Of a stretch of 38,216 nt of DNA, positions 8,380 to 38,216 are shown piece after piece. The DNA is from a virus. Below the pieces are notes generated by a model. It saw nothing but the letters and a program-made list of their open reading frames with translations, had not been told where the DNA came from and ran no database searches. The position numbers and the translations under genes are program-made. The stretch's first letter is position 1. Every line of letters begins with the position of its first letter. The stretch spans positions 1 through 38,216 of the IMG/VR virus record IMGVR_UViG_3300045988_060547. One strand, written 5' to 3'.

Positions 8380-11300
8380 TTATTTCACCCCCTCCCACCA
8401 GTTCTTCTCGTTCTTCGCCTTCTCCGCCTTCTTGTCCGCATCCTTCACCCACTGCGCAAAGTTCTTTTCCTCGTACAGCGGATTCCCGTCTGCCTCCTCG
8501 AGGGCCAGCAGCTTCTTTTCCAGCCTCTCCCGGTCGCCGTCGCTTCCGGCCAGATACTCTTCCTTCACGGCCTCGGTGATCTTGCTCTTGATGCTGCCCT
8601 TGTCCTTGCCTGCGGTCATCAGGCGGTCAAGCTCCTCCTGCGCGTCCTTTGCCCGGCCATTTTTCACTTCGTCCAGGAGCGCGTCGTATATGCCGCCGTC
8701 CTTGCTGCCCGCCAGCAGTTCGTCCGCCTTGCCGTCCACCGCCTTGTTCACCACGTCGATGAGCTGCGCCCGCCGGGCCGCGTCCGCTTTGCCCTTGGCT
8801 CTGTCCGTCGCGGGGGCGACGCCCAGCCCCTCCCGCAGCTTCTCGAATACGGCCTGCCGGGCCTTTTCCTCGGCCCGGGTCTTCCCGGCGTTCCGGGCCT
8901 CGGCCGCCGCCAGCACGTCGGCGTCGTACTGCTTCAGCCGCCTTGCCAGCTCGCTGTCCACCTTGTCCGTCTTGTTCATCTGTTCCAGCTTCTTCATCGC
9001 CGCAGCAGCTTCCTCGCTGTCCCCGCTCTGGATGGCGTTGTACAGCCGGTCGTACTGCCCGGTAGCCGAAGAGGGGGCAGAGTTAAAGCTGAACCCTTCG
9101 CCTCTGCCGATGGCCTGTGCATCCTCCCAGTAGCCTTCAAACGCCTGCATCACCTTCCGGATGTTGGCCGCCGGTACGCCGTACAGCTCAAGGCCGCACT
9201 GGATGTCCTTCAGCACCGCCTTGTTCAGCTTCTGGTGGTGCGCCGCCAGCTCTTCCTCGCTCATCTCGCCGGTGTCCGTCCGCAGCAGCTTGGCGGTCTT
9301 GGTAAAGGCGGCAAACAGATCGTTCACCGCACTGATATTGGTGGCGCTCACCACGTCGTAGTCCGCGCCGCTTGCAGCGTTCGAGATAACGCTGTAGATC
9401 TCCGCTCCGTACAAAAAGTTTCCAGCTGCGCTTTCGGTGTACAGGTCGAAGAACCGCTTGCCCACGCTGGCCGCCGTGATGTCGCCGTTCTCGTCCTGCT
9501 CCCTGTCCCACCGGTGGAGCAAGAAGTCCGCGCCGATCTTCATCAGGGCAAATACCGCCGTCTGCACCGCCTGGCTTGCCGCCGCCCGGCGCAGGCTCTG
9601 CCCGGCCCGCTGTACCTCGGCCTTGTTCTCGGCGCTCTGGTCGGCAGCGTACCGGGATTTCTGGGCCTTGTAGTCGCCTACTGCGTCGGCCAGGATGCCG
9701 TAGTTCTGGAAGCGCTGGGTGGTAAACATGGTCAGCGTCTTTACAAACTCATTGTCGCTGCGCTGGATGCCCGCCCGCTGCATGGTGGTGTAGTTGGGCT
9801 GGGTCTCCTCGATGACCCGCTGGTACATCTTGTTCACGGCTTCCCAGTAGGCTTCGCTGCCCTTCTCCGCGGCACCCTCGCCGAATTCCGCTGCGTGGTG
9901 CTCCACATATCGCTTCGCGCCCTCCCACAGCGCCGCCACCGTGATCTCGTCCATGCCGGTGATCCAGCCGGTCACGGCAGGCATGGCTTCCGAGGCCTTC
10001 GCCACAAGGTTTTTGTGCGCGCCGATGGAGCTCATCTCGCCCCGCTTTGTCCCCCGCAGTCGGTATTGCAGCAGGGCGTCTCCGTGCCGGCGGATCTCTG
10101 CTTCCACCGCGGCCCGCTGCTTGCCCGAGAAATTCTTCACGAAGGGCAGCACCGCCGCCATGGTGTCTGCTCCCAGCACAGCGCCCGCCGTGGGCAGACT
10201 GGCTGCCTGCGCGATGGCCACGCCCGGGTTCACGGTCAGGATGGCCCCGGCGTAGTTGCCCCGCATCCGGTCCAGCGCCCGGCTCATGGTGCTGCTGCGG
10301 TGCCGCTGCCTGGTCTGCAGGTCGGTCAGCAGGTCATTGATGTAGCTTACCGTCTCCCTGCCCCACTTCTCGCCGATGATCTTGTCCTTCAGCACACCGA
10401 TGCCCTCTGCCGTCTCCACGGTGCTGTTCAGTACCCGCTGCACGTCCCGGATGGGGGCTGCAAGGCCCGCATAGGCTGCCGTGTCCCGCAGGCTCCGCTT
10501 CACCACGTTCTGACACTCTTCCAGCAAAATGGGCTTGTCGCTCTTCACGCGCTCCTTCAAAAAGCCCCGGCCCTCGATGGTGGCATCCATCTTCACGCCC
10601 TCGATCTCCGTCGCCAGCGTGCTCCGGTCTACCGCGATGGGGTAGTAGTTCTTCACGGTGGCCCGGTCGTAGCCCAGCAGCTTCATGCTGGTCTCGTTGA
10701 TGAGGTTCGTGGTGTACCGCCCGAAAAAGTCCTCCATGTCCTCGCACCATGCCCGGTCATAGTCCGTCATGGCGTCCTGTACCGTCTGCAAAATGGTGTC
10801 GGCCATGGGGACGCCGTCGGCGTTCACCAGTGTCCCCAGCATCACGGTCTGGCTGCGCTGGTAGGCCCTCTCGATGTTGCCCTTGGCGTACTGGACAGCG
10901 TCCGGCAGGGTCAGGCCGCCGGTCATCAGGTGGTGGCGGCTGTCCTCGTTGCGCAGCAGCATGTACAGGCTGCACAGCTGTGCGTGGTTCAGCGGCACGG
11001 CATTGCCCTTGCTGTCCTTCAGGCCGATGTCAACCAGCTCCGCCCCCGGCCCGGCAAAAGCCTCCACCTCTTTCAGGTGTTCCTTGCCGGTCACGTTGGC
11101 AAACAGGCTTTCGCCTTCTACCAGGATCTCCGTCTGCCGCCGCTGGCCGTCGTTCAGCATCTGCCCCAGCTTCTCCATCTGGCCGTTTTTAGTGTAGCCG
11201 CCCAGGCGCCGGAACATTCTCGTGCCGCCCAGCATGTCCAGCTGGTAGCGGTTCATCGCGCCCTTCGCCTTCTCAAATTTCTCCCCGAAACCGTTGCCCT

Positions 11301-14300
11301 CAGAGTTCAGCACCTCGTGGGCGGCCTTCATGGCCATGCTGTCCACTTCTTCGGCTCTCGCAAGGCTCAGGGTCTTGTTCTCGGTCCGGATCATGTGCAG
11401 GGTGCTGGCCGTGATGGCCTTCAGCATCCGCAGCTGGTCCACCGTCATGGGCAGATAGGTGCGGTTCTCCGTCTCCCGGATGCGCTGGCGCAGCCGGTCC
11501 CGCAGCTGTTCGGCCTTGTCGCCGTCCGGCAGAGCCCTGGCTTCTTCCAGCTGCTTGTTCAGCCGGTCCAGCTTTGCCTGCTTGCTGGCGCTCATGTCGT
11601 CCCGCAGCATCTGGATGAGGTTTTCCACGCCGCTGTTTTCCCAGTCGGCGTGGATGCCGGCGTCCATCTCTCCGCTGCGCCGGATGCTGTCCTGCAGGGC
11701 GGTCAGCTTGACCACGGCGTTGTTGTTCAGCACCGTCATGTCCGCCAGCTTCGCCACCTCGGCGGCCTGCACGATGAGGCTCTTCTGTACATATTTCCCG
11801 GGCTTCGGCCGCAGCACCATCTGGTTGAGCTGGGCGGCATTGTTCCGGATGCTCCGTTTCAGTTCGTCCGCCTTCCGTCCTTCCCGGGCTTTCTGTACCC
11901 GCTTTTCGGCCAGTGCCTTTGCCACGGCCACGTCTTCGTCCCGCTGCTGCCGGGCCGTTTCAATGGCGATTGCATTCCTCTGAGCCTGTTTTTCCTGCCA
12001 CGCTTCGGCCTTGCGCTGGTTCTCGGCCTCCCACTCCATGATCTCGTTTTCCTGTATCAGCAGCTGATGCTCCGCCCGGTCGGCCCGCTGCTGCTCTCCG
12101 GCCACCTGCCGGGAAAGGTCGTCGATCTGGGAGCGCAGCTGTCGGCGCTCCAGCTTTATCTCGTCCAGCATCTCCTGCCGGGCCTGCTTCATCCGGTTCT
12201 TTTCGGCCTTCCATTCCCGCTCGTAGGCTTCCCGCAGAGCAGTCATCTTCTCGTCGAGACCCGCCGCTGTGCTCACCTGTGCGCCCAGCGTTTCCAGATT
12301 CTCGTTGAGCTGTCGTTCTGCCCGGCTCACGCTCTTGACCTCGGCGCTCTGGCTGCGGCTGTTTTCCCGCATCCGGTCGGCAAAAGCCTTCCGCTGGGCC
12401 TGCTGCACGCTCTTCAGCCCCTTCGTCACCTCAGCCGCCCGCTCCTCGCTGCCGGCGGCCATGGCAGCCACCTCCCGGTTATGCTTTAAGATGCCCTCGA
12501 ACACCGCCTCGGCATCGGTCATCTCCGGGTGGCTCATGATGTCGCCGATCATCCGGCCCGCCAGCTCCACCTTGGCGTCCTCGTATTCGGCAGCGTCCGC
12601 GAACCGGCTCATCATCTTGGGCTTGATGGTGTCGTGTACGTTCATCAGCACATCGAGCCATTCCGTGCTCTCCATGACGGCTGCGCCCGCCACGCCCGCT
12701 TCCTGTGCCGCCGAGCGGAAGAGTGCCGCAGCGCTCTCCTTCACGCCGCCCACGGCCCGGGTGTCGTTCACGATGGCCTCGTACTGTTCCGCCGGGTTGC
12801 CGTCCCGGTATCCCTCCGCCTGCCGCAGCTTCACGCCGTGGCGCCGGGCCTCGGCCACCGCCTCTGTCCAGCTTCCGTACCGCTTCACAAGCTCGGCCTT
12901 GGCCTTGCCGTTCTTGTCTACCGTGTAGGTCAGGTCATGCAGGTCGGGGTACTCATCCCAGAGTTCCGTGTTCCGGTAGGTTGCCTCATCCAGCACCTCG
13001 CCTGCCAGCGTCTCGGCCAGTCCCTGCGCCTTGGCCATGTCCGCGCCCTCCGAGCGCAGATACTCCACCAGCGCCCGTGTCTCGTTTGCCAGCTTCGTCC
13101 GGTCGGTCCGGCTGCCGTTGGTCTTGGTCCACCGGATGGCGAGGCTTTCGAGGGCAGCGTCCGAGAGCCGGGTGTTCTTCGTCAGGCCGAAGAACTGGTT
13201 CAGGGTGTCAAAGGCCGCTGCCTTCTCCGCCAGTACCCGGCTGGCCTGCCGCTGCTGGTTCTGCTTGGCGTCCCGGTCGGCCTGCTCGGCCAGCTGAAAG
13301 CGGGTGGTTTTCTTCACAGGTTCGTCTGTTCTATTGCGTTCGGCAGAGGTTTGTGCTATACTCTGTTTAGAAGATACTTCCTGGGTGTCTGCAAAGGCAC
13401 TCAGCATCGCTTTCGGGAGCGATGTGGCGGTATCTTCTTTTTTTATTGGTAAGCCTTGAGTATTCAGTGTTACATAGCTTCCATCCGTCCAGCAGACTTC
13501 ATGTACATAGAACGCCCTTCGATTATCATGACGGTAAGAATTGACGATAACACTTTCATAAAGTCTTGCTCCATTGATCTCAACAGGTGCTGCAAAAACA
13601 TAGGTATCATAGCCTCTGCCCTGCCAGTTCTTTTCGTATCCAATTTGACGGCCATTTTTGATGATCTCAGGAATTGCGCCTACTGCTGCCTGTTTTGCGG
13701 CGCTGTTGCCGTGTTGGACGGTCGTTCTTGCACCTTTCACAGTCAATTCTACTGTTCCAAATCCCGACCTCTCAACACGATTTCCGAGAGAATCAAAATA
13801 AGCTGCAACATTCGCAATGTTTTCTTTTCGGCTTGTGCCAAACGAGACTTCTGTTCCCTTAATGACTGCTACCGTTTCCATCTGCTCGAGCTGTGTAAGA
13901 TTTTTATTCATCCGCTCAACAAGGGAATCTTTACCCTCATGCAGCTGAAACCGCACCCCTTTCTTTTCCGCCGCGCTCTCAGTCTTGAGAGCAGCGGCGT
14001 TTTCTTTTGCCGTCCGCAGGTTGTCCATGGCCTTTTCTGCGTGGGCGAAATACTCGTCCTGCAAAGTGCGCTTTTCGGCCTCGGCCAGGCGCTTCGCTTT
14101 CAGGGCGGCGCGGTCGTCCGGGTCGATGGTCAGCACTTCCTTCGCCCGGCTGATGAGCCCATCCAGCATCTGCCGCACCTGCTCCATCACCTTATGGATG
14201 GCGCCGCTCTTGCCTGCGTTCTTCTCTGCCTGCCCGCGCTGGAACGTCACCCAGCGCTTGAAGCTCTCCTCGCTGTCAAAGATGCCCCGCCATGCGTCGG

Positions 14301-17300
14301 CCACCAGCTCTTCCGCTGCCTGCTCGTAGGTCAGACTCTGGGCGCTGTAGTCCTCGAGCTTTGCCCGGATCATCTCGTCCAGGCTTTCGTAGCCGCTGCT
14401 CTTCGCCAGATATTCCAGCGCGTGCTCCTGCAAAGTCCTTGCGCCCTCGGCGTCCAGCGCGTTGTACCAGTGGTAGTCCTCGTGCAGCACCGTGCCGAAG
14501 ATGTCCTGCGCACTGTCGCCGAAGAAGATCCGGGCCGTCTCGGTGTCCACATAGGCCCTGATGCTCCGGTCGTTCTGCAGCACATCCCTCAGCACAGCAT
14601 CCGTGCCGGTGGCCGCCGCGTTCAGGCTGATGATCTGGCTGGCCGGGTCGCTCTCCTGCCGCATCGTACCCTTGGCGTATACCTCGCCCCTGCCGCTGGT
14701 ACTCTCGCTGCCAAGCGCGCCGCCCAGTTCGGTCATCTTTTCGGCATACAGCATCCGTTCGCCCTTGCCCTGGGTGTAGGCGATTTCAAGGGCCGTCCGG
14801 CCGGCGTCGGTGCTCAGGATATAATTGATGTCCGCCGCCGTGCCGCTCATGCTGCCCGCCAGCTCCAGCGCCTGCGCAAAGGTGGCAGCGCCTCTCCGGC
14901 CCAGCCGGTACAGCGGCGACGCTGCGGCCGCATACCGGTCGGCGTCCACCCTGTCCGGCATATTTTTGCTGATGGTCTGGGCTGCCTTATCCGTTACCCG
15001 CCAGCCTTCCAGCGCCCGCTGCACCTCAGCCTCCCGCTGGGTCTTCGGTGCTTCCGGCCGGAGACCCAGCGTCTCCCGCAGCGGGGCGTTCTCGTAGCTG
15101 TCGGTTTCAGCTGCGGCGGCAGTCGCTTCACGCACGTTGTCCGGTGCAGCCGTTTCCGGCATGGCATCGGCGGTTTCTGCGGGAGCATCCTGTACTGTCT
15201 GCGGCACATCCACAGCTTCGCCGGCCAGCTCTGCTCTCTGTGCAGCAGGCACTGCTTCGCTTTTTACGTTCTGCTGTGCGGCGATCTCCTGCAGCATCCG
15301 GCGGGTCGCGGCCGCAGTGTCGGGCAGCGTCACGCCGTAAGCCTGCTCAAAAGCCGCACGGTTTTCCCGGTTCTCGGCGTTCGGCGTAAACAGTCCGATG
15401 GTCTTGCCCGTCAGGCTGTCGCTCGCCGCCACCTCGGCAAACTGCCGCACCGCCGGGTTTTCCGACTGTGCAGCAGCCTCGTTTACGCTGCTGTTTACTC
15501 CTTCCGTCTGCGCCTGCGGCGCATCCGCCCGCTGCATACTTTCAGTGGAGCTCCGCTCTCGCGCGGCGTCAGCCGACGGGACCGGTGAGAGGTTTTCTTC
15601 CCGCCCGCTGATGTTTTCAGTGGCCGCAGGTGCAGCCTGGCTGAGAGGTTCTCCCCCCGCCAGCGCTCTATCAGTAGATCTATCCGCAGCCGGCTGAGAG
15701 GGCTCCGCCGCCCGGGCCTCCCACTCCTTCTGCCGGGCAGCGGCCCGTTTCCTCCGGTCCATCTGGTCATAATGCTCTGTCTGTCCCAGCAGGCTTGCGT
15801 CTCCTCCGTTCAGCTTTGCCAGCCCCGTGCCGACTGCGCCGCCCAACGCACCGGACGCGCCGCCGGAAAGTCCGCTTTCCAGCGCGGTGAGGAAGGTGTC
15901 TTTGGTAAACAGGTTCTTCGCCGCCTCGCTGTCCCCCAGCGCAGCGTCGATGGCCATGTCCGCATAGGTCTCCGCAAAGGCCTGCATCGAGTTGTCGATG
16001 CCGCCCGAGATGGCCGCAGCCACCGCCGGGTAGCGCTGCGCCAGCTCCGAGCTGCCCGCAAGCCCCTGCACCCAGTCCGCGATCTGCCCTGCCAGTGTGT
16101 CCTTCGCGTAGTCCGAGCCCATGGTCTTTGCAAGGTCGGCTGCGCCCACCGAGTTGATGGCCCATCCCGCGCCGAACTTGGCGAGGCCGCCGCCCAATGC
16201 CTTGCCGGCGCTCTCGCCCTTCTCCGCGCTCTGGCCCATGGCCTCTGCCGCTCCCTGTGCGCTCAGGACAGGCAGCACTGCCGCCGGGTTCACGCCCGCC
16301 ACAGCCAGGTTCTCCGCTGCGCTGGTCACGGCCCCCGCCACGGCCCGCTGGGTCGGGCTCAGGCCGCTCTGGGCCGCAGCCGTCAGCTGCTGGCCGCGGT
16401 CATAGAGCTGGTAGCCCACGCTCTGGTTCTTGTCTATGCCGTCGCTCACTTCCAGCCCCGCCAGCCTCTGGCGCATCTCCCGGATCTCCTTGGAGTTGTA
16501 CCCCATCGAGATCAGCTCCCGGTTCCGGCTCTCCGGCCAGGTGGGGTTATAATCCATGTCCATGTCGGTCAAAAGGTCAAAAAGGCTCTGGGCGTGTTCG
16601 TCGCCCTTTACCTCCTGCTCCACCTGTTTCCAGTTCTTCAGGGTGGCGTCAATGTTCTTTCCCGCCTGTACGCCGTACTCCGCGCCCAGCACCGGGGCAG
16701 CTGCCACCGTGTCCGCGATTCCGCCGATGGTGTTCGCCGTCCGGCGCACGCCCCGCTGCCATGCGGGGATGGCGTCCAGCGCAGCGTTCATCCGCCGGGC
16801 CTCGTTGATCTGCTCCTGTGTCCAGCCGCCCTTTTGGATGAGGTCGGCGTCCGTGTAGATGCCCGCGTTGTCCACCCGGCGCACCGCGTCGGCCAGATTC
16901 TTGTTGTCCCCGGTGTCCATCCACTGGTTGATCCGGTCAAACTCGTCCGGTACGCTGTCCTTGGCAAAGCTGGCTCTCAGCTCCTGCGCCGGGCCGGTGC
17001 CGTAAGCCATGGCCCCGCTGCCCACGTTCTCCAGCACGTTCCCGCTCTTCGCAGGTACGCCCCACTTCTGCCCCATGTCCAGCGCCCGGGCTGCCGCTTC
17101 CGGCATCTGCTGTGCCGGGCCGCTGCCCTCTGTAGCAGCGCCCGCCATTTTACGCCCCACAGAGCTTCCAGCGTCCAGCGGAAACTTGCCCGACACGCCA
17201 GTGGCTCCCACTCTGGGGGAGCTGGCGCGCAGCGCCTGAGAGGGCTCGTTCCTCGCATCCACTTCCCCCATGTCGCTGGAGTGCCGCTCGGTGTACTGCT

Positions 17301-17475
17301 GCAGGGCATCTGCATAGATGTTGCTTTTGGGCAGCACTGTGCTCGATGCAGTGGACGGATTCGGCGTCTTGGTGCGGATAGCTCTCACCTTTTCCGCCGT
17401 CCACCCAGAGCTTTCTGCCGCCTTCGACGGGTTGCTTTCTCTCATTTCCTTAACTTTTTCCGCTGTCCATGCCAT
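8380..17475 (-). CDS. Giant (3,031 aa) polyvalent virion / ejection protein
   Basis: It is an uninterrupted ORF whose ATG overlaps the upstream stop. The N-terminal third is Gly/Ala-rich. An HExxH motif (VLHEDYHW) lies at aa 998-1002 (14470-14484). An LPD/PBECR-like module covers roughly aa 1190-1340. The C-terminal half is long and helical. Confidence 0.9.
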   Translation of the reverse strand: MAWTAEKVKEMRESNPSKAAESSGWTAEKVRAIRTKTPNPSTASSTVLPKSNIYADALQQYTERHSSDMGEVDARNEPSQALRASSPRVGATGVSGKFPLDAGSSVGRKMAGAATEGSGPAQQMPEAAARALDMGQKWGVPAKSGNVLENVGSGAMAYGTGPAQELRASFAKDSVPDEFDRINQWMDTGDNKNLADAVRRVDNAGIYTDADLIQKGGWTQEQINEARRMNAALDAIPAWQRGVRRTANTIGGIADTVAAAPVLGAEYGVQAGKNIDATLKNWKQVEQEVKGDEHAQSLFDLLTDMDMDYNPTWPESRNRELISMGYNSKEIREMRQRLAGLEVSDGIDKNQSVGYQLYDRGQQLTAAAQSGLSPTQRAVAGAVTSAAENLAVAGVNPAAVLPVLSAQGAAEAMGQSAEKGESAGKALGGGLAKFGAGWAINSVGAADLAKTMGSDYAKDTLAGQIADWVQGLAGSSELAQRYPAVAAAISGGIDNSMQAFAETYADMAIDAALGDSEAAKNLFTKDTFLTALESGLSGGASGALGGAVGTGLAKLNGGDASLLGQTEHYDQMDRRKRAAARQKEWEARAAEPSQPAADRSTDRALAGGEPLSQAAPAATENISGREENLSPVPSADAARERSSTESMQRADAPQAQTEGVNSSVNEAAAQSENPAVRQFAEVAASDSLTGKTIGLFTPNAENRENRAAFEQAYGVTLPDTAAATRRMLQEIAAQQNVKSEAVPAAQRAELAGEAVDVPQTVQDAPAETADAMPETAAPDNVREATAAAAETDSYENAPLRETLGLRPEAPKTQREAEVQRALEGWRVTDKAAQTISKNMPDRVDADRYAAAASPLYRLGRRGAATFAQALELAGSMSGTAADINYILSTDAGRTALEIAYTQGKGERMLYAEKMTELGGALGSESTSGRGEVYAKGTMRQESDPASQIISLNAAATGTDAVLRDVLQNDRSIRAYVDTETARIFFGDSAQDIFGTVLHEDYHWYNALDAEGARTLQEHALEYLAKSSGYESLDEMIRAKLEDYSAQSLTYEQAAEELVADAWRGIFDSEESFKRWVTFQRGQAEKNAGKSGAIHKVMEQVRQMLDGLISRAKEVLTIDPDDRAALKAKRLAEAEKRTLQDEYFAHAEKAMDNLRTAKENAAALKTESAAEKKGVRFQLHEGKDSLVERMNKNLTQLEQMETVAVIKGTEVSFGTSRKENIANVAAYFDSLGNRVERSGFGTVELTVKGARTTVQHGNSAAKQAAVGAIPEIIKNGRQIGYEKNWQGRGYDTYVFAAPVEINGARLYESVIVNSYRHDNRRAFYVHEVCWTDGSYVTLNTQGLPIKKEDTATSLPKAMLSAFADTQEVSSKQSIAQTSAERNRTDEPVKKTTRFQLAEQADRDAKQNQQRQASRVLAEKAAAFDTLNQFFGLTKNTRLSDAALESLAIRWTKTNGSRTDRTKLANETRALVEYLRSEGADMAKAQGLAETLAGEVLDEATYRNTELWDEYPDLHDLTYTVDKNGKAKAELVKRYGSWTEAVAEARRHGVKLRQAEGYRDGNPAEQYEAIVNDTRAVGGVKESAAALFRSAAQEAGVAGAAVMESTEWLDVLMNVHDTIKPKMMSRFADAAEYEDAKVELAGRMIGDIMSHPEMTDAEAVFEGILKHNREVAAMAAGSEERAAEVTKGLKSVQQAQRKAFADRMRENSRSQSAEVKSVSRAERQLNENLETLGAQVSTAAGLDEKMTALREAYEREWKAEKNRMKQARQEMLDEIKLERRQLRSQIDDLSRQVAGEQQRADRAEHQLLIQENEIMEWEAENQRKAEAWQEKQAQRNAIAIETARQQRDEDVAVAKALAEKRVQKAREGRKADELKRSIRNNAAQLNQMVLRPKPGKYVQKSLIVQAAEVAKLADMTVLNNNAVVKLTALQDSIRRSGEMDAGIHADWENSGVENLIQMLRDDMSASKQAKLDRLNKQLEEARALPDGDKAEQLRDRLRQRIRETENRTYLPMTVDQLRMLKAITASTLHMIRTENKTLSLARAEEVDSMAMKAAHEVLNSEGNGFGEKFEKAKGAMNRYQLDMLGGTRMFRRLGGYTKNGQMEKLGQMLNDGQRRQTEILVEGESLFANVTGKEHLKEVEAFAGPGAELVDIGLKDSKGNAVPLNHAQLCSLYMLLRNEDSRHHLMTGGLTLPDAVQYAKGNIERAYQRSQTVMLGTLVNADGVPMADTILQTVQDAMTDYDRAWCEDMEDFFGRYTTNLINETSMKLLGYDRATVKNYYPIAVDRSTLATEIEGVKMDATIEGRGFLKERVKSDKPILLEECQNVVKRSLRDTAAYAGLAAPIRDVQRVLNSTVETAEGIGVLKDKIIGEKWGRETVSYINDLLTDLQTRQRHRSSTMSRALDRMRGNYAGAILTVNPGVAIAQAASLPTAGAVLGADTMAAVLPFVKNFSGKQRAAVEAEIRRHGDALLQYRLRGTKRGEMSSIGAHKNLVAKASEAMPAVTGWITGMDEITVAALWEGAKRYVEHHAAEFGEGAAEKGSEAYWEAVNKMYQRVIEETQPNYTTMQRAGIQRSDNEFVKTLTMFTTQRFQNYGILADAVGDYKAQKSRYAADQSAENKAEVQRAGQSLRRAAASQAVQTAVFALMKIGADFLLHRWDREQDENGDITAASVGKRFFDLYTESAAGNFLYGAEIYSVISNAASGADYDVVSATNISAVNDLFAAFTKTAKLLRTDTGEMSEEELAAHHQKLNKAVLKDIQCGLELYGVPAANIRKVMQAFEGYWEDAQAIGRGEGFSFNSAPSSATGQYDRLYNAIQSGDSEEAAAAMKKLEQMNKTDKVDSELARRLKQYDADVLAAAEARNAGKTRAEEKARQAVFEKLREGLGVAPATDRAKGKADAARRAQLIDVVNKAVDGKADELLAGSKDGGIYDALLDEVKNGRAKDAQEELDRLMTAGKDKGSIKSKITEAVKEEYLAGSDGDRERLEKKLLALEEADGNPLYEEKNFAQWVKDADKKAEKAKNEKNWWEGVK

Positions 17476-33681: not shown

Positions 33682-33876
33682 TTATCCCTCCGTATTGTCA
33701 TATCCGGCCTTCTCGGCCTTCTCCACACTCACATCGTCGAACACCCCTTCCAGCACCCGCAGCATCCGGCGCTGTGCCGTGGGCCTCAGCCCCGCCCGCC
33801 GCATTGCGATCAGACAGTAGCCCATGCAGGCCGCGTTGCTCCACGGCCCGTTCAGATCCTTCAGCATTTCGTCCAT
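33682..33876 (-). CDS. Small hypothetical protein (64 aa)
   Basis: The product begins MDEMLKDLNGPWSNAACMGYCLIAMRRAG... It shares its 5' leader with the gene at 34238-34486. Confidence 0.5.
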   Translation of the reverse strand: MDEMLKDLNGPWSNAACMGYCLIAMRRAGLRPTAQRRMLRVLEGVFDDVSVEKAEKAGYDNTEG

Positions 33877-33914
33877 CTTTTTCTCCTTCCTCCCGCACTC
33901 TTCGGCGGGTCAGC
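33871..33914. repeat. 44-bp direct repeat, copy 1 (start codon plus leader)
   Basis: The sequence gtccatctttttctccttcctcccgcactcttcggcgggtcagc matches 34481-34524 with 2 mismatches. Confidence 0.85.
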
Positions 33915-33969
33915 GGCCCGTTTCGTGGCCAAACTTTTTGAACTATGATACAATACCCCCAGAAAGGAG

Positions 33970-34290: not shown

Positions 34291-34486
34291 CTGCCTGAGC
34301 CAGTTTCTTCCGGTACTCCCTGTCTTCCCGCTGCCACGGGTTGTTCATGGAGCCGTACCAGAAATTCAGTGTGTAGCAAAACTCGTCCAGTGCAGCACAA
34401 AGCGGGTCTTCTTCCCGAAATACGGTGGTCGTGTCCCTGCCCTCCTCTTCCACAGGAGCGCAGGGCTTTTTGCTTTCGTTGTCCAT
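34238..34486 (-). CDS. Small hypothetical protein (82 aa)
   Basis: The product begins MDNESKKPCAPVEEEG... ATG 34486 is preceded by AAAGGAGAAAAAG. Confidence 0.5.
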   Translation of the reverse strand: MDNESKKPCAPVEEEGRDTTTVFREEDPLCAALDEFCYTLNFWYGSMNNPWQREDREYRKKLAQAVKAGLKRVLRDEDKLSD

Positions 34487-34524
34487 CTTTTTCTCCTTTC
34501 TCACGCACTCTTCGGCGGGTCAGC
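34481..34524. repeat. 44-bp direct repeat, copy 2
   Basis: The sequence gtccatctttttctcctttctcacgcactcttcggcgggtcagc is the partner of 33871-33914. Confidence 0.85.
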
Positions 34525-34540
34525 ACGAACAGTCTTGAAT

Positions 34541-34568
34541 TTGCTATCTTTCTGTGTTATCTTAAAAT
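34541..34568 (+). promoter_or_regulatory. Candidate sigma-A promoter of the double-glycine peptide gene
   Basis: TTGCTA (34541-34546) is followed by a 16-nt spacer and TAAAAT (34563-34568). Confidence 0.45.
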
Positions 34569-34598
34569 TAAGAGATGGATTTTAAGAAAGGAATTTTT

Positions 34599-34886
34599 AT
34601 GATTTGCTATCCTGCGTCTTCTTCGATTCTTTCTGCGGATGAAATCGAATATATTTCTGGTGGCTCTAGTGATGCCGGTGCAGTTTTTTCCTTAGTTGGT
34701 GCCGTGTTCTCAGTCATTAACGCAATAAATGTCGTTAATATCAAACATGACCTTCGCGAAAAAAATCCCGACAAAGATAATGTTGCACTCACACGTGATG
34801 CATATAACGCCTATATGGAAAAGCCCTACGGCAGTTTAATGATGATTAGCAGTGTGGTACTTTTGATTGGTGGCATTGCTTTGTAA
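34599..34886 (+). CDS. Peptide with a double-glycine (bacteriocin-type) leader and a two-TM mature part
   Basis: The product is MICYPASSSILSADEIEYISGG followed by SSDAGAVFSLVGAVFSVINAINVV...GSLMMISSVVLLIGGIAL. The leader fits LSxxELxxIxGG at positions -12, -11, -8, -7, -4, -2 and -1. An AAAGGA SD lies 8 nt upstream. Confidence 0.6.
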   Translation: MICYPASSSILSADEIEYISGGSSDAGAVFSLVGAVFSVINAINVVNIKHDLREKNPDKDNVALTRDAYNAYMEKPYGSLMMISSVVLLIGGIAL

Positions 34887-34908
34887 GTCTCAATTTCGTC
34901 CATCTCTC

Positions 34909-34932
34909 CCCCTCTTGAACTTTCAAGAGGGG
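34909..34932. terminator. 10-bp hairpin between convergent genes (likely terminator)
   Basis: CCCCTCTTGA (34909-34918) pairs with TCAAGAGGGG (34923-34932). On the + strand the stem is followed by AAATTTTAT. Confidence 0.5.
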
Positions 34933-34937
34933 AAATT

Positions 34938-35177
34938 TTATGTGTTCGTTGTGTCTTTTCGGGACACTGCTGAGGCAAAAAATATTTCGTTGACCTCTTC
35001 CGCCGACAAACCATAGTGCTCCTGGATCGCTGCAATTTCATTCTGCCGAAATTGCGCCCCACGGTACTCATTGATTTTAGCATTCAGACGGGAAAGACTC
35101 ATCTGCAGATAGTCCGCCAAATTCTGTTGTGACTCGCCATGTAACTGCATCACCGCATTCAGTTTTCGTTTATTCAT
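34938..35177 (-). CDS. Cro-like / antirepressor-type HTH protein
   Basis: The product is MNKRKLNAVMQLHGESQQNLADYLQMSLSRLNAKINEYRGAQFRQNEIAAIQEHYGLSAEEVNEIFF. A GGAGGTG SD is present. The gene is divergent from the CI-like gene. Confidence 0.8.
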   Translation of the reverse strand: MNKRKLNAVMQLHGESQQNLADYLQMSLSRLNAKINEYRGAQFRQNEIAAIQEHYGLSAEEVNEIFFASAVSRKDTTNT

Positions 35178-35211
35178 CTCTATCACCTCCGTATCTTTTT
35201 AGGATACTTAG

Positions 35212-35240
35212 ATATTAGCATCTTTCTCGAATCCTGTCAA
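35212..35240 (-). promoter_or_regulatory. Lytic (cro-side) sigma-A promoter
   Basis: The minus strand reads TTGACA (35240-35235), a 17-nt spacer, then TAATAT (35217-35212). Confidence 0.75.
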
Positions 35241-35251
35241 GATATTTTTTC

Positions 35252-35279
35252 TTGCTTTTTAGATTTTATGTGGTATTAT
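35252..35279 (+). promoter_or_regulatory. Lysogenic (cI-side) promoter with an extended -10
   Basis: TTGCTT (35252-35257) is followed by a 16-nt spacer and TGgTATTAT (the -10 hexamer is 35274-35279). The inverted repeat CAAGA/TCTTG (35238-35254) lies between the two promoters. Confidence 0.6.
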
Positions 35280-35311
35280 TAAGACACAATAAACAAAAGA
35301 GGTGATGCTTC

Positions 35312-35686
35312 ATGACCACTGGCGAACGGATACGCCAGCTTCGCATCGAGCACCAGATGACGCAGGAAGAACTGGGTGCGCGAGTTGGCGTGCAAAAGGC
35401 AGCCATCTACAAATATGAAAACGGCCTTGTCGTCAATCTCAAACGCTCTATTTTGGAAAAACTCGCCATCGTTTTGGATACCACTCCCACTTATTTGATG
35501 GGCATGGAAGATTCTGAGCAGCAGGCCAATATGCAGCTCACTCCCCAGCAGTCCACTCTTTTAGCAGCCTTCGACCAGCTCAACGAGGAAGGCCAGGTCA
35601 AGGCGGTGGAGTATGTCGAAGACCTCGTCCTCACCGGACGTTATAAAAAATGTCCTGCGTCTGGTCTGGACGCAAAGGAAGCATAA
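35312..35686 (+). CDS. CI-like repressor, XRE-family HTH
   Basis: The product contains MTTGERIRQLRIEHQMTQEELGARVGVQKAAIYKYENG. It is 124 aa and has an AGAGGTG SD. Confidence 0.9.
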   Translation: MTTGERIRQLRIEHQMTQEELGARVGVQKAAIYKYENGLVVNLKRSILEKLAIVLDTTPTYLMGMEDSEQQANMQLTPQQSTLLAAFDQLNEEGQVKAVEYVEDLVLTGRYKKCPASGLDAKEA

Positions 35687-35738
35687 AAAATAACCGCTCT
35701 GGCTAAACCAAAGCGGCTGATCAGTATGGTGGTTTTTT

Positions 35739-36416
35739 ATGATTGATGATTTTTACGCTCGTCCACTTTATGAGCGCTCGGCAATTATTCACGCCGAAAC
35801 AATCAAATTTAATGTTAATGAACTCCTTTTGGGAATTTCTTTCCCCAATGAAGAGTTAAAAAGCCAAGTTCTTATTGATCTGTACTCGTTCTTTATTGCT
35901 TGCAACGAAGAAATTCTACATTTTTCTGATGATGAAAACACTCAAATTTTTCTTCGTCTTTCCAAGTCAATTTCTGATGAAGATAATTTCTCGAAAATCA
36001 TAAAAAAAGAAAGTCAGTATGTCTCTTTGTGGATGAACTCCCTTCCGGATGATATTCTTTCCCCTCGCTGTGAAGATGTCCCCATTTTGTGTTCTGTAGT
36101 TTCTAGTGACCTCGCCTCGCTTTTAGTCATCTCGCAATCAGCTTTATTTTCTTGTTTTCAACAATATCTTAGAGATCTTTCATGCGAAGACTCCTCAAGG
36201 TATAAGCAGATTCTAAACGGTATACTTCCGTCATCACAAGCGGATTACCTTAGTACGCCGCATACTTTTTCATGTTCAATTTCTTCCCTGAATTCTCCAA
36301 AATCATTTTTGTCTACTGTAAAGAAAAAACATGTTTCTAACGAAACCGCCAAAGGTTGCGGTTGCCTTTCGGTGCTTCTTGTAATTTATCTTCTCATTGC
36401 CTTTTTCGGAGATTAA
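35739..36416 (+). CDS. Tail-anchored (C-terminal TM) protein of unknown function in the lysogeny operon
   Basis: The 225-aa product comes from AT-rich DNA and is predicted helical. Its C-terminus is GCGCLSVLLVIYLLIAFFGD. I recognise no family. Confidence 0.6.
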   Translation: MIDDFYARPLYERSAIIHAETIKFNVNELLLGISFPNEELKSQVLIDLYSFFIACNEEILHFSDDENTQIFLRLSKSISDEDNFSKIIKKESQYVSLWMNSLPDDILSPRCEDVPILCSVVSSDLASLLVISQSALFSCFQQYLRDLSCEDSSRYKQILNGILPSSQADYLSTPHTFSCSISSLNSPKSFLSTVKKKHVSNETAKGCGCLSVLLVIYLLIAFFGD

Positions 36417-36429
36417 ATAATTTTGAATC

Positions 36430-36660
36430 GTGGTGAATCTTATGTCTACCCGCAGCCACCCCGAATCTGCCCGCATCATCCGGGAGGCACGGCACGCCGC
36501 CGGGCTGACGCAGCTGGAGCTTGCGGAGAAGCTTGGTGTCACCATCGGCACGATCAGCTATTATGAGCGAGGCGCAGGCCAGCCCAAAATCGATAATCTC
36601 TTTGCACTCTGCGACATCCTGCACATCAGACCCGCCGACCTCCTGAGTGCCGATACATAA
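36430..36660 (+). CDS. Second XRE-family HTH protein
   Basis: The product contains ARIIREARHAAGLTQLELAEKLGVTIGTISYYERG. An alternative start is ATG 36442. Confidence 0.75.
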   Translation: MVNLMSTRSHPESARIIREARHAAGLTQLELAEKLGVTIGTISYYERGAGQPKIDNLFALCDILHIRPADLLSADT

Positions 36661-36663
36661 CCT

Positions 36664-36699
36664 AACGCCCCCGCCAGTGTTTCCACCAGCGGGGGCGTT
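36664..36699 (+). terminator. 11-bp GC-rich hairpin after the XRE gene (weak T-run)
   Basis: AACGCCCCCGC (36664-36674) pairs with GCGGGGGCGTT (36689-36699). Only TTTGT follows the stem. Confidence 0.4.
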
Positions 36700-36860: not shown

Positions 36861-38006
36861 ATGGCCAAAAATAAAAAAGGTTCTGACGGCCGCTACCGCT
36901 ACCGTATCTATCTGGGCAAAGCGGACGATGGCAGCAAAAAGTTTAAGTCCTTTTACGGCTCCACGGAGCGTGAGGCCCGTGCAGCTGCCGAAGCTTACCG
37001 CACCGCCATCGCCAAAGGTATGGACCCCCAGCAGGCCGAAGCCACCTTAGGTACCCTGTACGATAATCTCATCGCGTCCAAAAAGGCAAAGGGCATCAGC
37101 CAAAAAAGCATTGACCGGCTGGCCACCAATAAAGCCCACTGGGGCGAGCTGGTGGACGTTCCCGCCTCTGAGCTGCGGGCGTCCGACTTCCAGCAGGTGC
37201 TCAACACGCTGGCCGGCTGGCACGACGGCAAGCCGCCCCTCTCCCACTTTACCCTCACCAATCTGCGCGGCAGCGCCAAGGCAGCGTATGACCTCGCCAT
37301 CCCGGAGATCGTGATGTACAACCCTCTGATCAAGACCATCACCCCCGCCGGGGCTGCGCCGGAACCGCGCGACCCCCTCACCGAGGCGCAGCAGCTCTGG
37401 ATCCGGGAGACGCCCCACGCCGCCCAGCGAGCCGCCATGCTCCTGCTCTACTCCGGCCTCCGCCGCAGCGAGGCCACTGCCCTCACTTGGGCCGACATCG
37501 ACCTCGACGACGCCACCATCACGGTCAGCAAGGGCTACGACTTCCGCGCCAAAAAGGTCAAGATCCCCAAGACGCCTGCCGGCGTCCGCGTCGTCAGTAT
37601 CCCCAAGGTCCTTGTCGATTATCTCCGCACCCAGCAGGACGGCTGCCTCTATGTGCTCCACAACCCCAAAGGCCAGCAGATGACCGAGCAGGGCTGGAAG
37701 CGCCTGTGGGAGAGCTATATGCGCGACCTGAACGTCAAGTACGGCTACGACGGCCAGCAAAATAAAAACCGCCCGGGCGGCCTGCCCATGCGCATCGATA
37801 CCTTTACCCCGCACCAGCTCCGCCATACCTTCTGCACCCTGATGTACTTCGCCGGTGTGGACGTCATGACCGCCCGCGATCAGATGGGCCACAAGGACAT
37901 CTCGGTCACGCTGGGCATCTACACCGCCCTCGATAAAAAATTTAAGAAAAAGAAAATCAATCGTCTGGATACCTACCTCAAAAAATCCTGTGCTAACTCG
38001 GGCTGA
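36861..38006 (+). CDS. int: Tyrosine recombinase / phage integrase
   Basis: The product is 381 aa counted from ATG 36861, preceded by AAAGGAG. It contains LLLYSGLRRSEATAL, TPHQLRHTF, GHKDISVTLGIYT and an N-terminal SAM-like arm-binding region. The gene is adjacent to attR. Confidence 0.93.
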   Translation: MAKNKKGSDGRYRYRIYLGKADDGSKKFKSFYGSTEREARAAAEAYRTAIAKGMDPQQAEATLGTLYDNLIASKKAKGISQKSIDRLATNKAHWGELVDVPASELRASDFQQVLNTLAGWHDGKPPLSHFTLTNLRGSAKAAYDLAIPEIVMYNPLIKTITPAGAAPEPRDPLTEAQQLWIRETPHAAQRAAMLLLYSGLRRSEATALTWADIDLDDATITVSKGYDFRAKKVKIPKTPAGVRVVSIPKVLVDYLRTQQDGCLYVLHNPKGQQMTEQGWKRLWESYMRDLNVKYGYDGQQNKNRPGGLPMRIDTFTPHQLRHTFCTLMYFAGVDVMTARDQMGHKDISVTLGIYTALDKKFKKKKINRLDTYLKKSCANSG

Positions 38007-38051: not shown

Positions 38052-38125
38052 TTTTGAAAAACTTTCCCGGAAATTAGGGCAATCAGCGCCCACATCCCCC
38101 TCGAAAGGCATTTTCCCAGCCAAAC

Positions 38126-38171
38126 AAAAATCCCCGAAAAGTCAGGCGCGAAGCCACTTTTCGGGGATTTT
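38126..38171 (-). terminator. Rho-independent terminator of the tRNA (copy inside attR)
   Basis: It is identical to 5-50. Confidence 0.75.
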
Positions 38172-38175
38172 ACTT

Positions 38176-38216
38176 TGGAGCTACTGATCCGATTCGAACG
38201 GACGACCTGCTCATTA
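38176..38216 (-). tRNA. tRNA gene, 3' part only; the 5' part lies beyond the window edge
   Basis: It has the same 41 nt as 55-95. The gene runs leftwards into the window and ends in CCA at 38176. The isotype cannot be read because the window stops at the third anticodon base. Confidence 0.7.

Follow-up and report, generated by a model that had tools for sequence, protein, structure and literature searches.

Faecalibacterium is counted among the most abundant and most health-associated gut bacteria, with MAM as its best-known effector, and phages of this genus have been linked to disease-associated shifts. MAM is made with a double-glycine leader of the motif MMMPANx8-11VxGG, ending in G20G21, and a C39-peptidase ABC transporter (PCAT), which adjoins the mam gene, co-occurs with MAM and is highly expressed, has been reported to process it; the MAM leader is almost never detected, and the MAM cargo is the top envelope protein (PMC12184118, PMC8836110). 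Leader residues at positions -1, -2, -4, -8 and -12 are reported to dock in the C39 site, and a search for further leaders with the literal MMMPAN...VxGG motif recovered MAM alone (PMC12184118), an outcome that follows from the literal MMMPAN having been required. Here, a 95-aa peptide gene is described from a viral DNA of 38,216 nucleotides (IMG/VR record IMGVR_UViG_3300045988_060547, positions 1 to 38,216; this whole stretch is referred to below as the window), a complete prophage extending from attachment site to attachment site, in which the peptide appears to carry a leader of the MAM type. Double-glycine cargo and prophage morons are each of an already known kind; what is new is an orphan prophage precursor with a leader matching the MAM-type tag of its host genus, an undescribed family sharing this tag, so far in Faecalibacterium only, and the implication that the MAM exporter may have several substrates.

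The gene product consists of the leader MICYPASSSILSADEIEYISGG followed by 73 residues, which open with SS. The best explanation, in which we place confidence evenly divided between acceptance and doubt, is that the gene is a lysogenic-conversion moron encoding a PCAT-exported, helical-hairpin envelope peptide of lysogens, most likely serving exclusion or envelope remodelling. Its phage would thus probably use the exporter of its host to place a small membrane-active peptide at the cell surface. In the proposed course of events, the gene would be driven in the lysogen by its own promoter, rightward with the CI and integrase genes, and transcription would stop at a hairpin before cro; lysogen transcription is proposed because of the promoter and terminator matches and the orientation of the gene. 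The chromosomal PCAT beside mam would then bind the leader helix, cut after G22 and export the 73-aa cargo, a presumed helical hairpin with two hydrophobic segments flanking a charged loop, which would come to lie in, or on, the cytoplasmic membrane or envelope. As judged from sequence, the steps leading from the gene to an exported peptide appear well supported; the weakest step is the last, in which the cargo would act at the envelope of the lysogen, in superinfection exclusion or remodelling of the MAM-containing surface, and not in killing.

The leader residues relative to the GG are L-12, S-11, E-8, I-7, I-4, G-2 and G-1, as an earlier note on the same DNA had read them. In a 21-sequence alignment extending down to 23% identity, nine columns were found to be invariant (Y4, P5, E15, Y18, G21, G22, P57, L64 and G78), the first six of which lie inside the leader, and L11 was nearly invariant. 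Expressed relative to the GG, E-8 is invariant in the family, -12 is nearly always L, -7 is occupied by I, L or M (Q in one member, P0139) and -4 by I, T or V. Double-glycine leaders of ~15-30 residues end in GG; this leader was shown to comprise 22 residues, with G21 and G22 invariant in 21 relatives. In PCAT cargo, a short leader helix presents hydrophobic side chains at -4, -7 and -12 together with an acidic one at -8, and the same arrangement was observed here, AlphaFold2 placing a short helix at residues 13-20 (-10 to -3). The pattern [LIVM]xxxE[LIVM]xx[LIVMT]xGG occurred a single time in the six reading frames of the whole window, and block shuffles returned this generic motif at 0.11 per window, the LSxxE...GG form at 0.003 and a MAM-like form (with P-18 and Y-5) in 0 of 300. 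Because the leader columns are the most conserved in the family and align as a profile with the MAM leader, the sequence evidence indicates that the leader is real and excludes a chance match.

When the peptide family was compared by hhalign with MAM, for which 2191 proteins had been retrieved, only residues 2-23 aligned, with residues 1-22 of MAM (22 columns, Prob 87%, E 4.2e-6), the alignment ending at the cleavage site and leaving the cargo unaligned. Features common to both leaders are P-18, Y or F at -15, a hydrophobic residue at -12, E-8, M, I or L at -7, Y-5, V, I or T at -4, and the GG, and the family leader follows the pattern M-x-x-YP...LSxDE[IML]xY[IT]xGG. To our knowledge, P-18 and Y-5 are not part of the generic double-glycine consensus. 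The literal motif MMMPANx8-11VxGG does not occur in the peptide leader, in which YP replaces MP-A-N and I or T stands at -4; the hhalign match to the MAM leader is nonetheless the one given above. The likeness to the MAM/PCAT system therefore comprises leader type and length, the host genus and a presumed C39 cleavage after GG followed by export (PMC12184118). Conversely, the MAM cargo is 114-120 aa long without a transmembrane (TM)-like segment, whereas the peptide cargo of 73 aa has two such segments and is unrelated, and mam lies beside the PCAT gene, whereas the peptide gene is a prophage orphan. A MAM homologue was rejected as an identity, as no homologous cargo was present, the profile alignment stopped at the cleavage site, and a phmmer search of 1.84 billion representatives gave six matches, all to the peptide's own family.

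The same leader data bear on whether the gene encodes an ordinary two-pass membrane protein, for exclusion or another task, which would be inserted by Sec or YidC and stay uncleaved, with the motif serving another purpose or retained by common descent. The two TM-like segments and the K/R-rich loop fit a topology with the loop inside and the N-terminus outside, no transporter is encoded nearby, and the same slot holds other small membrane proteins in relatives. Such a protein appears clearly unlikely, however. No other part of the family is as strongly conserved as the leader, which can be matched to the MAM leader residue by residue, the C39-docking residues included (PMC12184118), and the motif would very rarely arise by chance. 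Nor would a segment dangling outside the cell be expected to retain an invariant E-8, Y-5 and GG in sequences as little as 23% identical. The earlier note had offered, as one alternative, a small exclusion protein with a coincidental match to the leader consensus. The coincidence has to be abandoned, but an exclusion or envelope role may hold alongside a functional leader; the choice between the two is a false one, because the leader shows the strongest conservation within the family and a specific likeness to that of MAM.

The peptide open reading frame (ORF) represents a genuine protein-coding gene, as the ratio of non-synonymous to synonymous substitution rates (dN/dS) relative to relatives was 0.12-0.28, indicative of purifying selection on the peptide. 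An alternative in-frame ATG at 34575 would add eight residues, and this extension is not kept in relatives. The start coordinate of 34541 in the earlier note is explained by the first hexamer of the promoter-like site, which begins there; this promoter-like sequence (a consensus match), the AT-rich setting beside the CI/cro switch and the orientation shared with the lysogeny genes had all been pointed out in that note and were borne out. The GC content of the gene is 40.6% (GC content at third codon positions, GC3, of 0.37), compared with 60.8% for the whole window, and the 433 bp separating both flanking genes (34505-34937) have 40% GC, compared with 61% for the phage. A virome contig with 97% identical flanks (L049) joins window position 34524 directly to 34951, which identifies the intervening DNA as a precise 426-bp insertion with promoter, gene and terminator. 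With cro on one side and the first early gene on the other, the peptide gene represents an inserted moron: it lies rightward, as do CI and integrase, in an autonomous cassette of deviant GC content that is present in some and absent from others among near-identical phages.

The distribution of the cassette is patchy, a family member being present in only 2 of 80 IMG/VR loci with related CI genes. Diverged peptide copies (45-70% identical) occupy the same slot in prophages L003, L010/L011 and L044, another diverged copy lies directly downstream of CI in L009, and in L015 and L088 the slot is filled by a different plus-strand membrane ORF. Window region 34429-35717 was found to move as one block in L001, L004 and L005, which had suggested that the CI/cro immunity module always includes the peptide gene; this idea was rejected, as 78 of the 80 related CI loci lack the peptide gene. 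Recent capture of the window copy from the host chromosome was considered because a paralogue in L007 adjoins a tRNA-Thr attachment site, and was likewise rejected, given a GC3 of 0.37 as opposed to 0.73-0.79 in chromosomal copies and an identity of only 37%.

The position of the cassette, antisense within the early operon between cro and the first early gene, together with a T-run after the hairpin on the plus strand only, would also suit a unit acting mainly as RNA, whose synthesis towards cro and antisense to that operon would damp lytic transcription, the peptide being incidental. We regard this as extremely unlikely, in view of the strong purifying selection on the protein and of a protein family that is conserved at chromosomal and other prophage sites without an antisense relation. 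No convincing operator-like repeats common to the peptide promoter and the cro/CI intergenic region were found. The positions of the gene, its parts and its surroundings are listed in Table 1.

Table 1. Positions in the window of the peptide gene, its predicted parts and the surrounding prophage features.
Feature	Position	Strand	Basis or remark
95-aa precursor coding sequence, stop codon included	34599..34886	+	ORF translation (ATG to stop); relatives; dN/dS
22-codon MAM-type double-glycine leader MICYPASSSILSADEIEYISGG	34599..34664	+	Invariant columns; hhalign to MAM leader; AlphaFold2 helix
Predicted 73-aa cargo, two hydrophobic helical segments around a charged loop	34665..34883	+	Kyte-Doolittle, AlphaFold2
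Ribosome-binding site AAAGGA	34587..34592	+	6 nt 5' of ATG, read from sequence
Promoter-like site TTGCTA-16-TAAAAT	34541..34568	+	Consensus match only, 9/12
Terminator-like hairpin, then AAATTTT	34909..34932	+	Minus strand without T-run after hairpin
AT-rich moron cassette, 426 bp, entire transcription unit	34525..34950	+	Comparison with L049
Repeat of ~40 bp at left cassette junction	about 34481-34524		Further copy at 33871-33917; upstream of other early genes in relatives
cro-like helix-turn-helix (HTH) gene	34938..35186	-	Convergent with peptide gene; last codons inside inserted cassette
Early (cro) operon promoter-like site TTGACA-17-TAATAT, TG extension	35212..35240	-	Consensus match
CI-like repressor (HTH_3)	35312..35686	+	Domain match
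Tyrosine integrase	36861..38006	+	Domain match
95-bp direct repeat, attachment (att) core, includes tRNA 3' part	1-95 and 38122..38216		Bounds prophage; matches att region next to tRNA-Thr in L001

The identical 95 bases at both ends of the window match the att region of L001, from which it follows that the window is one whole prophage; its genes include a large terminase, a tyrosine integrase and the CI-like/cro-like pair. Sequence comparison identifies the host as Faecalibacterium, because the chromosomal DNA next to the L001 copy of this prophage has 83% identity to a Faecalibacterium metagenome-assembled genome and because the cluster of the window peptide, with members on >1500 metagenomic contigs, contains hypothetical proteins named from F. 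prausnitzii and F. longum. Accessions MDD7207109.1 and MDY5549383.1 lead to F. longum and F. prausnitzii genomes, respectively, in which the gene is carried. No PCAT gene was detected in the window by tblastn with the Faecalibacterium PCAT, in keeping with the earlier note, which had concluded that export would need a host system. Such an exporter was found in the host genus: in two contigs, the gene directly upstream of mam has a 785-aa product, which combines the domains Peptidase_C39, ABC_membrane and ABC_tran and keeps the catalytic Q, C and H residues (Q8, C14 and H92).

The predicted cargo was shown to contain two hydrophobic helical segments, as the earlier note had described, with 19-residue Kyte-Doolittle peaks of 2.1 and 2.0 and AlphaFold2 helices at residues 25-55, 61-74 and 76-94 (predicted local distance difference test score, pLDDT, of 76). 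Its start displays small-xxx-small spacing, and the conserved positions of the cargo are P57, L64, G78 and a YMEKPYG block. The cargo is acidic (net charge -1, isoelectric point (pI) 5.5), and family members have cargo pI values of 4.5-6.8, with one exception at 8.3. Foldseek searches of PDB and BFVD gave a best E of 0.9, and the nearest shapes were ordinary helical hairpins of the kind seen in ATP-synthase c subunits, an uninformative likeness. In being a small GG-leader protein that would be exported by a PCAT and is not an obvious bacteriocin, the peptide resembles CtA, the PCAT1 cargo of Clostridium (Acetivibrio) thermocellum (PMC12184118). It differs from CtA in showing no sequence similarity, as a profile search of PDB sequences returned nothing. 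The CtA gene also adjoins that of its transporter.

Two further identities were rejected on account of the cargo and its setting. A peptide pheromone (of the ComC/BlpC type, or arbitrium), corresponding to the signal peptide that the earlier note had entertained, is contradicted by a mature part whose length (73 aa) and hydrophobicity (two TM-like helices) greatly exceed those of such a signal, and by the absence of a receptor or kinase gene from the cassette. A holin was dismissed because the gene belongs to the lysogeny module and matched no holin of Pfam or PHROG; a leader of this type is joined to a holin C-terminus only in an unrelated chimera, described below for locus L019.

A lysogen-conferred class II bacteriocin, likewise raised in the earlier note, would be cut and secreted by the host PCAT, and its 73-aa hairpin would kill related prophage-free Faecalibacterium. 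This is unlikely, although it retains some weight through the combination of a GG leader with a small hydrophobic cargo. Likenesses to class II GG-leader bacteriocins, including the class IIb family TIGR03949 (lactobin A/cerein 7B), comprise the LSxxELxxIxGG leader, the small-xxx-small start of the cargo and a weak match of one relative, P0004, to TIGR03949 (E 0.052, 13.3 bits). This score, however, lies below the 21.5-bit cutoff and stems mostly from the leader, and the window protein has no match at all; the peptide also differs from class IIb systems in its longer, acidic cargo and in the lack of a second peptide, immunity or transporter genes. Class II bacteriocins are typically cationic, whereas nearly every member of the family has an acidic or neutral cargo. 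There is precedent for a prophage-encoded double-glycine bacteriocin that inhibits non-lysogens, and sublancin (SunA), of the Bacillus subtilis prophage SPbeta, is a prophage-encoded bacteriocin of the double-glycine type (PMC4336743). SPbeta encodes its own transporter (sunT), an immunity gene (sunI) and modification enzymes, whereas the phage described here carries the precursor only, without modification genes, and the two peptides are not similar in sequence. A 131-aa membrane protein encoded directly upstream of the 141-aa chromosomal paralogue (see below) could represent an immunity protein, but no homologue of it was found in the window. No immunity gene is co-transcribed with the peptide gene, which is followed directly by the terminator, no partner is conserved across contexts, and the chromosomal paralogues are core genes and do not belong to strain-variable islands. 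In total, four bacteriocin features were tested for and found to be absent, namely a family model above its cutoff, a cationic cargo, a linked immunity gene and a dedicated transporter, and the bacteriocin proposal of the earlier note is accordingly disfavoured.

The extent of the peptide family emerged from profile searches. Direct searches yielded few relatives, among them the six phmmer matches mentioned above, whereas a profile search returned 78 clusters in three size classes of 95, 113 and 141 aa; all named members are from Faecalibacterium, and species-representative genomes scanned with the close-family alignment gave nothing. The 141-aa paralogue is chromosomal, in the order lysA, 131-aa membrane protein, paralogue and pyrH-frr-uppS-cdsA-dxr, and carries the source name 'MULTISPECIES [Faecalibacterium]'; it is a core chromosomal gene, widespread in Faecalibacterium. 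The 113-aa and 96/97-aa forms adjoin tRNA genes at or beside which prophages sit. On sequence grounds, the peptide is best described as a phage-borne, AT-rich paralogue within an unnamed family with the same leader that includes core chromosomal genes. The neighbouring genes, encoding products of ~180-280 aa, were mostly unrelated across contexts, and a conserved partner or immunity gene was not found among them; only L001 and L006 share one.

Several of these loci display individual arrangements. The chromosomal paralogue P0010 (37% identical; L007 10001-10291) is located immediately beside tRNA-Thr (10467-10542), and the prophage copy of L001 is integrated at the same tRNA-Thr gene (L001 13544-13619). 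A 113-aa paralogue lies beside tRNA-Gly adjoining prophage DNA in L034 and L037. In L006 (197-1860), the gene for P0007 (58% identical) precedes two genes in its own orientation, one for a lipoprotein-like product of 238 aa and one with a SLATT domain, a setting that looks like a defence island.

The role proposed above for the exported cargo derives from this genomic background. Several observations favour a function at the lysogen's own envelope: the cassette is built as a moron and adjoins the switch, its slot holds other membrane proteins in relatives, and the host has paralogues; as the paralogues are core chromosomal genes, an envelope protein is better suited to the family than a strain-variable toxin. 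Among the roles considered, we infer that exclusion or surface remodelling is the most probable, with roughly double the likelihood of a bacteriocin. Superinfection-exclusion morons are known from lactococcal phages (Sie2009), Streptococcus thermophilus phages (Ltp) and lambda (rexB/sieB). The peptide gene shares with these an autonomous promoter-gene-terminator cassette of deviant GC content beside the repressor/cro switch, an orientation suited to the lysogen, a small membrane protein as product and a patchy presence; it differs in lacking homology to them and any PHROG or PADLOC match. We know of no report of a double-glycine leader in Sie2009, Ltp or rexB/sieB.

A number of points weigh against this explanation. 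The exclusion role would rest on gene position and analogy only, and the peptide matches no PHROG, PADLOC, Pfam or NCBIfam family (for Pfam and NCBIfam even at E 10). The evidence for MAM processing is itself proteomic and in silico, the window copy has S in place of Y or F at -15, and no PCAT gene is present at any family locus. Furthermore, Sec or YidC could insert the strongly hydrophobic helices before the PCAT gains access to them, and the positive-inside rule would predict a K/R-rich loop in the cytoplasm and an acidic N-terminus on the outer side, a topology in which the leader would stay uncleaved.

Beyond the PCAT-exported envelope peptide as such, a more specific extension may be considered, although it is tentative and on balance unlikely, in which Faecalibacterium phages have adopted the genus-specific MAM export tag. 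The hairpin protein would then be delivered into the S-layer-like surface that contains MAM, where it would block superinfection or alter the display of MAM, and the MAM PCAT would be a general small-protein route with several host and phage cargo families, not a one-substrate exporter. Alternatively, the sharing of the leader alone, and not of the cargo, with MAM might point to an exporter decoy, that is, a peptide that competes with MAM for the PCAT or co-assembles with MAM and so alters how much MAM the surface layer of lysogens contains or how this layer is arranged. A decoy is pure inference and seems very unlikely, since the cargo is conserved too (at the positions given above), so that the cargo itself presumably does something, and since host paralogues with the same leader coexist with MAM.

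Leader-type DNA patterns matched 16 and 8 stretches in IMG/VR, which represent MAM, the peptide family and a few further candidates, compared with 1 and 0 matches for frame-broken versions of these patterns containing one extra N. Among the other candidates, L019 (879-1298, plus strand) encodes a 139-aa chimera of a MAM-type leader, MNYPADYAVLSNEEMTYTTGG, one helix and the C-terminal 60 residues of a Phage_holin_4_1 holin, with the fusion point at the equivalent position of the full-length holin. In L016 (3761-3982, plus strand; MT835974.1), a 73-aa peptide combines the leader MKLPASYAVVDEEEMVYLDGG, identical to the MAM leader at 11 of 21 positions, with an unrelated, basic 52-aa cargo that starts ASDAYNNF. 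A nearby gene is one that we take, by eye, to encode signal peptidase I, on account of which this virome scaffold may carry host DNA at the L016 locus. Four viral contigs (L021 801-1172, L023 5126, L025 10250 and L029 1152) encode one and the same hydrophilic protein of 123 aa, which starts MEIPALVPTLSQSEIDYLLGG and is possibly a further double-glycine cargo or a chance match.

Other features of the prophage were noted in passing. The repeat of ~40 bp spans the ribosome-binding site and 5' region of several consecutive minus-strand early genes, with copies in L049 at 924-965, 1497-1535 and 2101-2138; because one copy abuts the left cassette junction, the repeat might serve as a linker for recombination when modules are exchanged. 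Downstream of CI lies a second AT-rich moron slot (35739-36416, plus strand, GC 0.37), the 225-aa product of which has a hydrophobic anchor at its C-terminus and matched no family. In relatives, this slot holds unrelated proteins, which are lipoprotein-like in L001 and membrane proteins in L003, L009 and L015; that in L004 was taken, from inspection of its sequence by eye, to be Fic-like. The peptide-cro-CI module (99% identical over window 34429-36697) is associated with a tyrosine integrase in the window and L001, and with a large serine recombinase at tRNA-Gln in L004 and L005 (L004 9656-11290). The host flank of L004 (11931-12077, plus strand) encodes a six-cysteine peptide, MERIKTIATRDLTKSVVTGGCGECQTSCQSACKTSCGVANQKCENSNK, that we assume from its appearance to be SCIFF-like. 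A single ORF of 3031 aa (8380-17475, minus strand) takes up ~24% of the 38-kb prophage, and its only Pfam match is LPD3 (large polyvalent-protein-associated domain).

The findings point to further likely substrates of the MAM exporter, in the form of a family of 95-, 113- and 141-aa proteins that has a core chromosomal member and a prophage member on more than 1500 metagenomic contigs. If the PCAT-exported envelope peptide is as proposed, it would represent a concrete case of a temperate phage that depends on a host PCAT, and would offer a handle on how lysogeny alters the Faecalibacterium surface. The precursor and the PCAT together would, moreover, provide a simple test system for the putative processing step of MAM itself.

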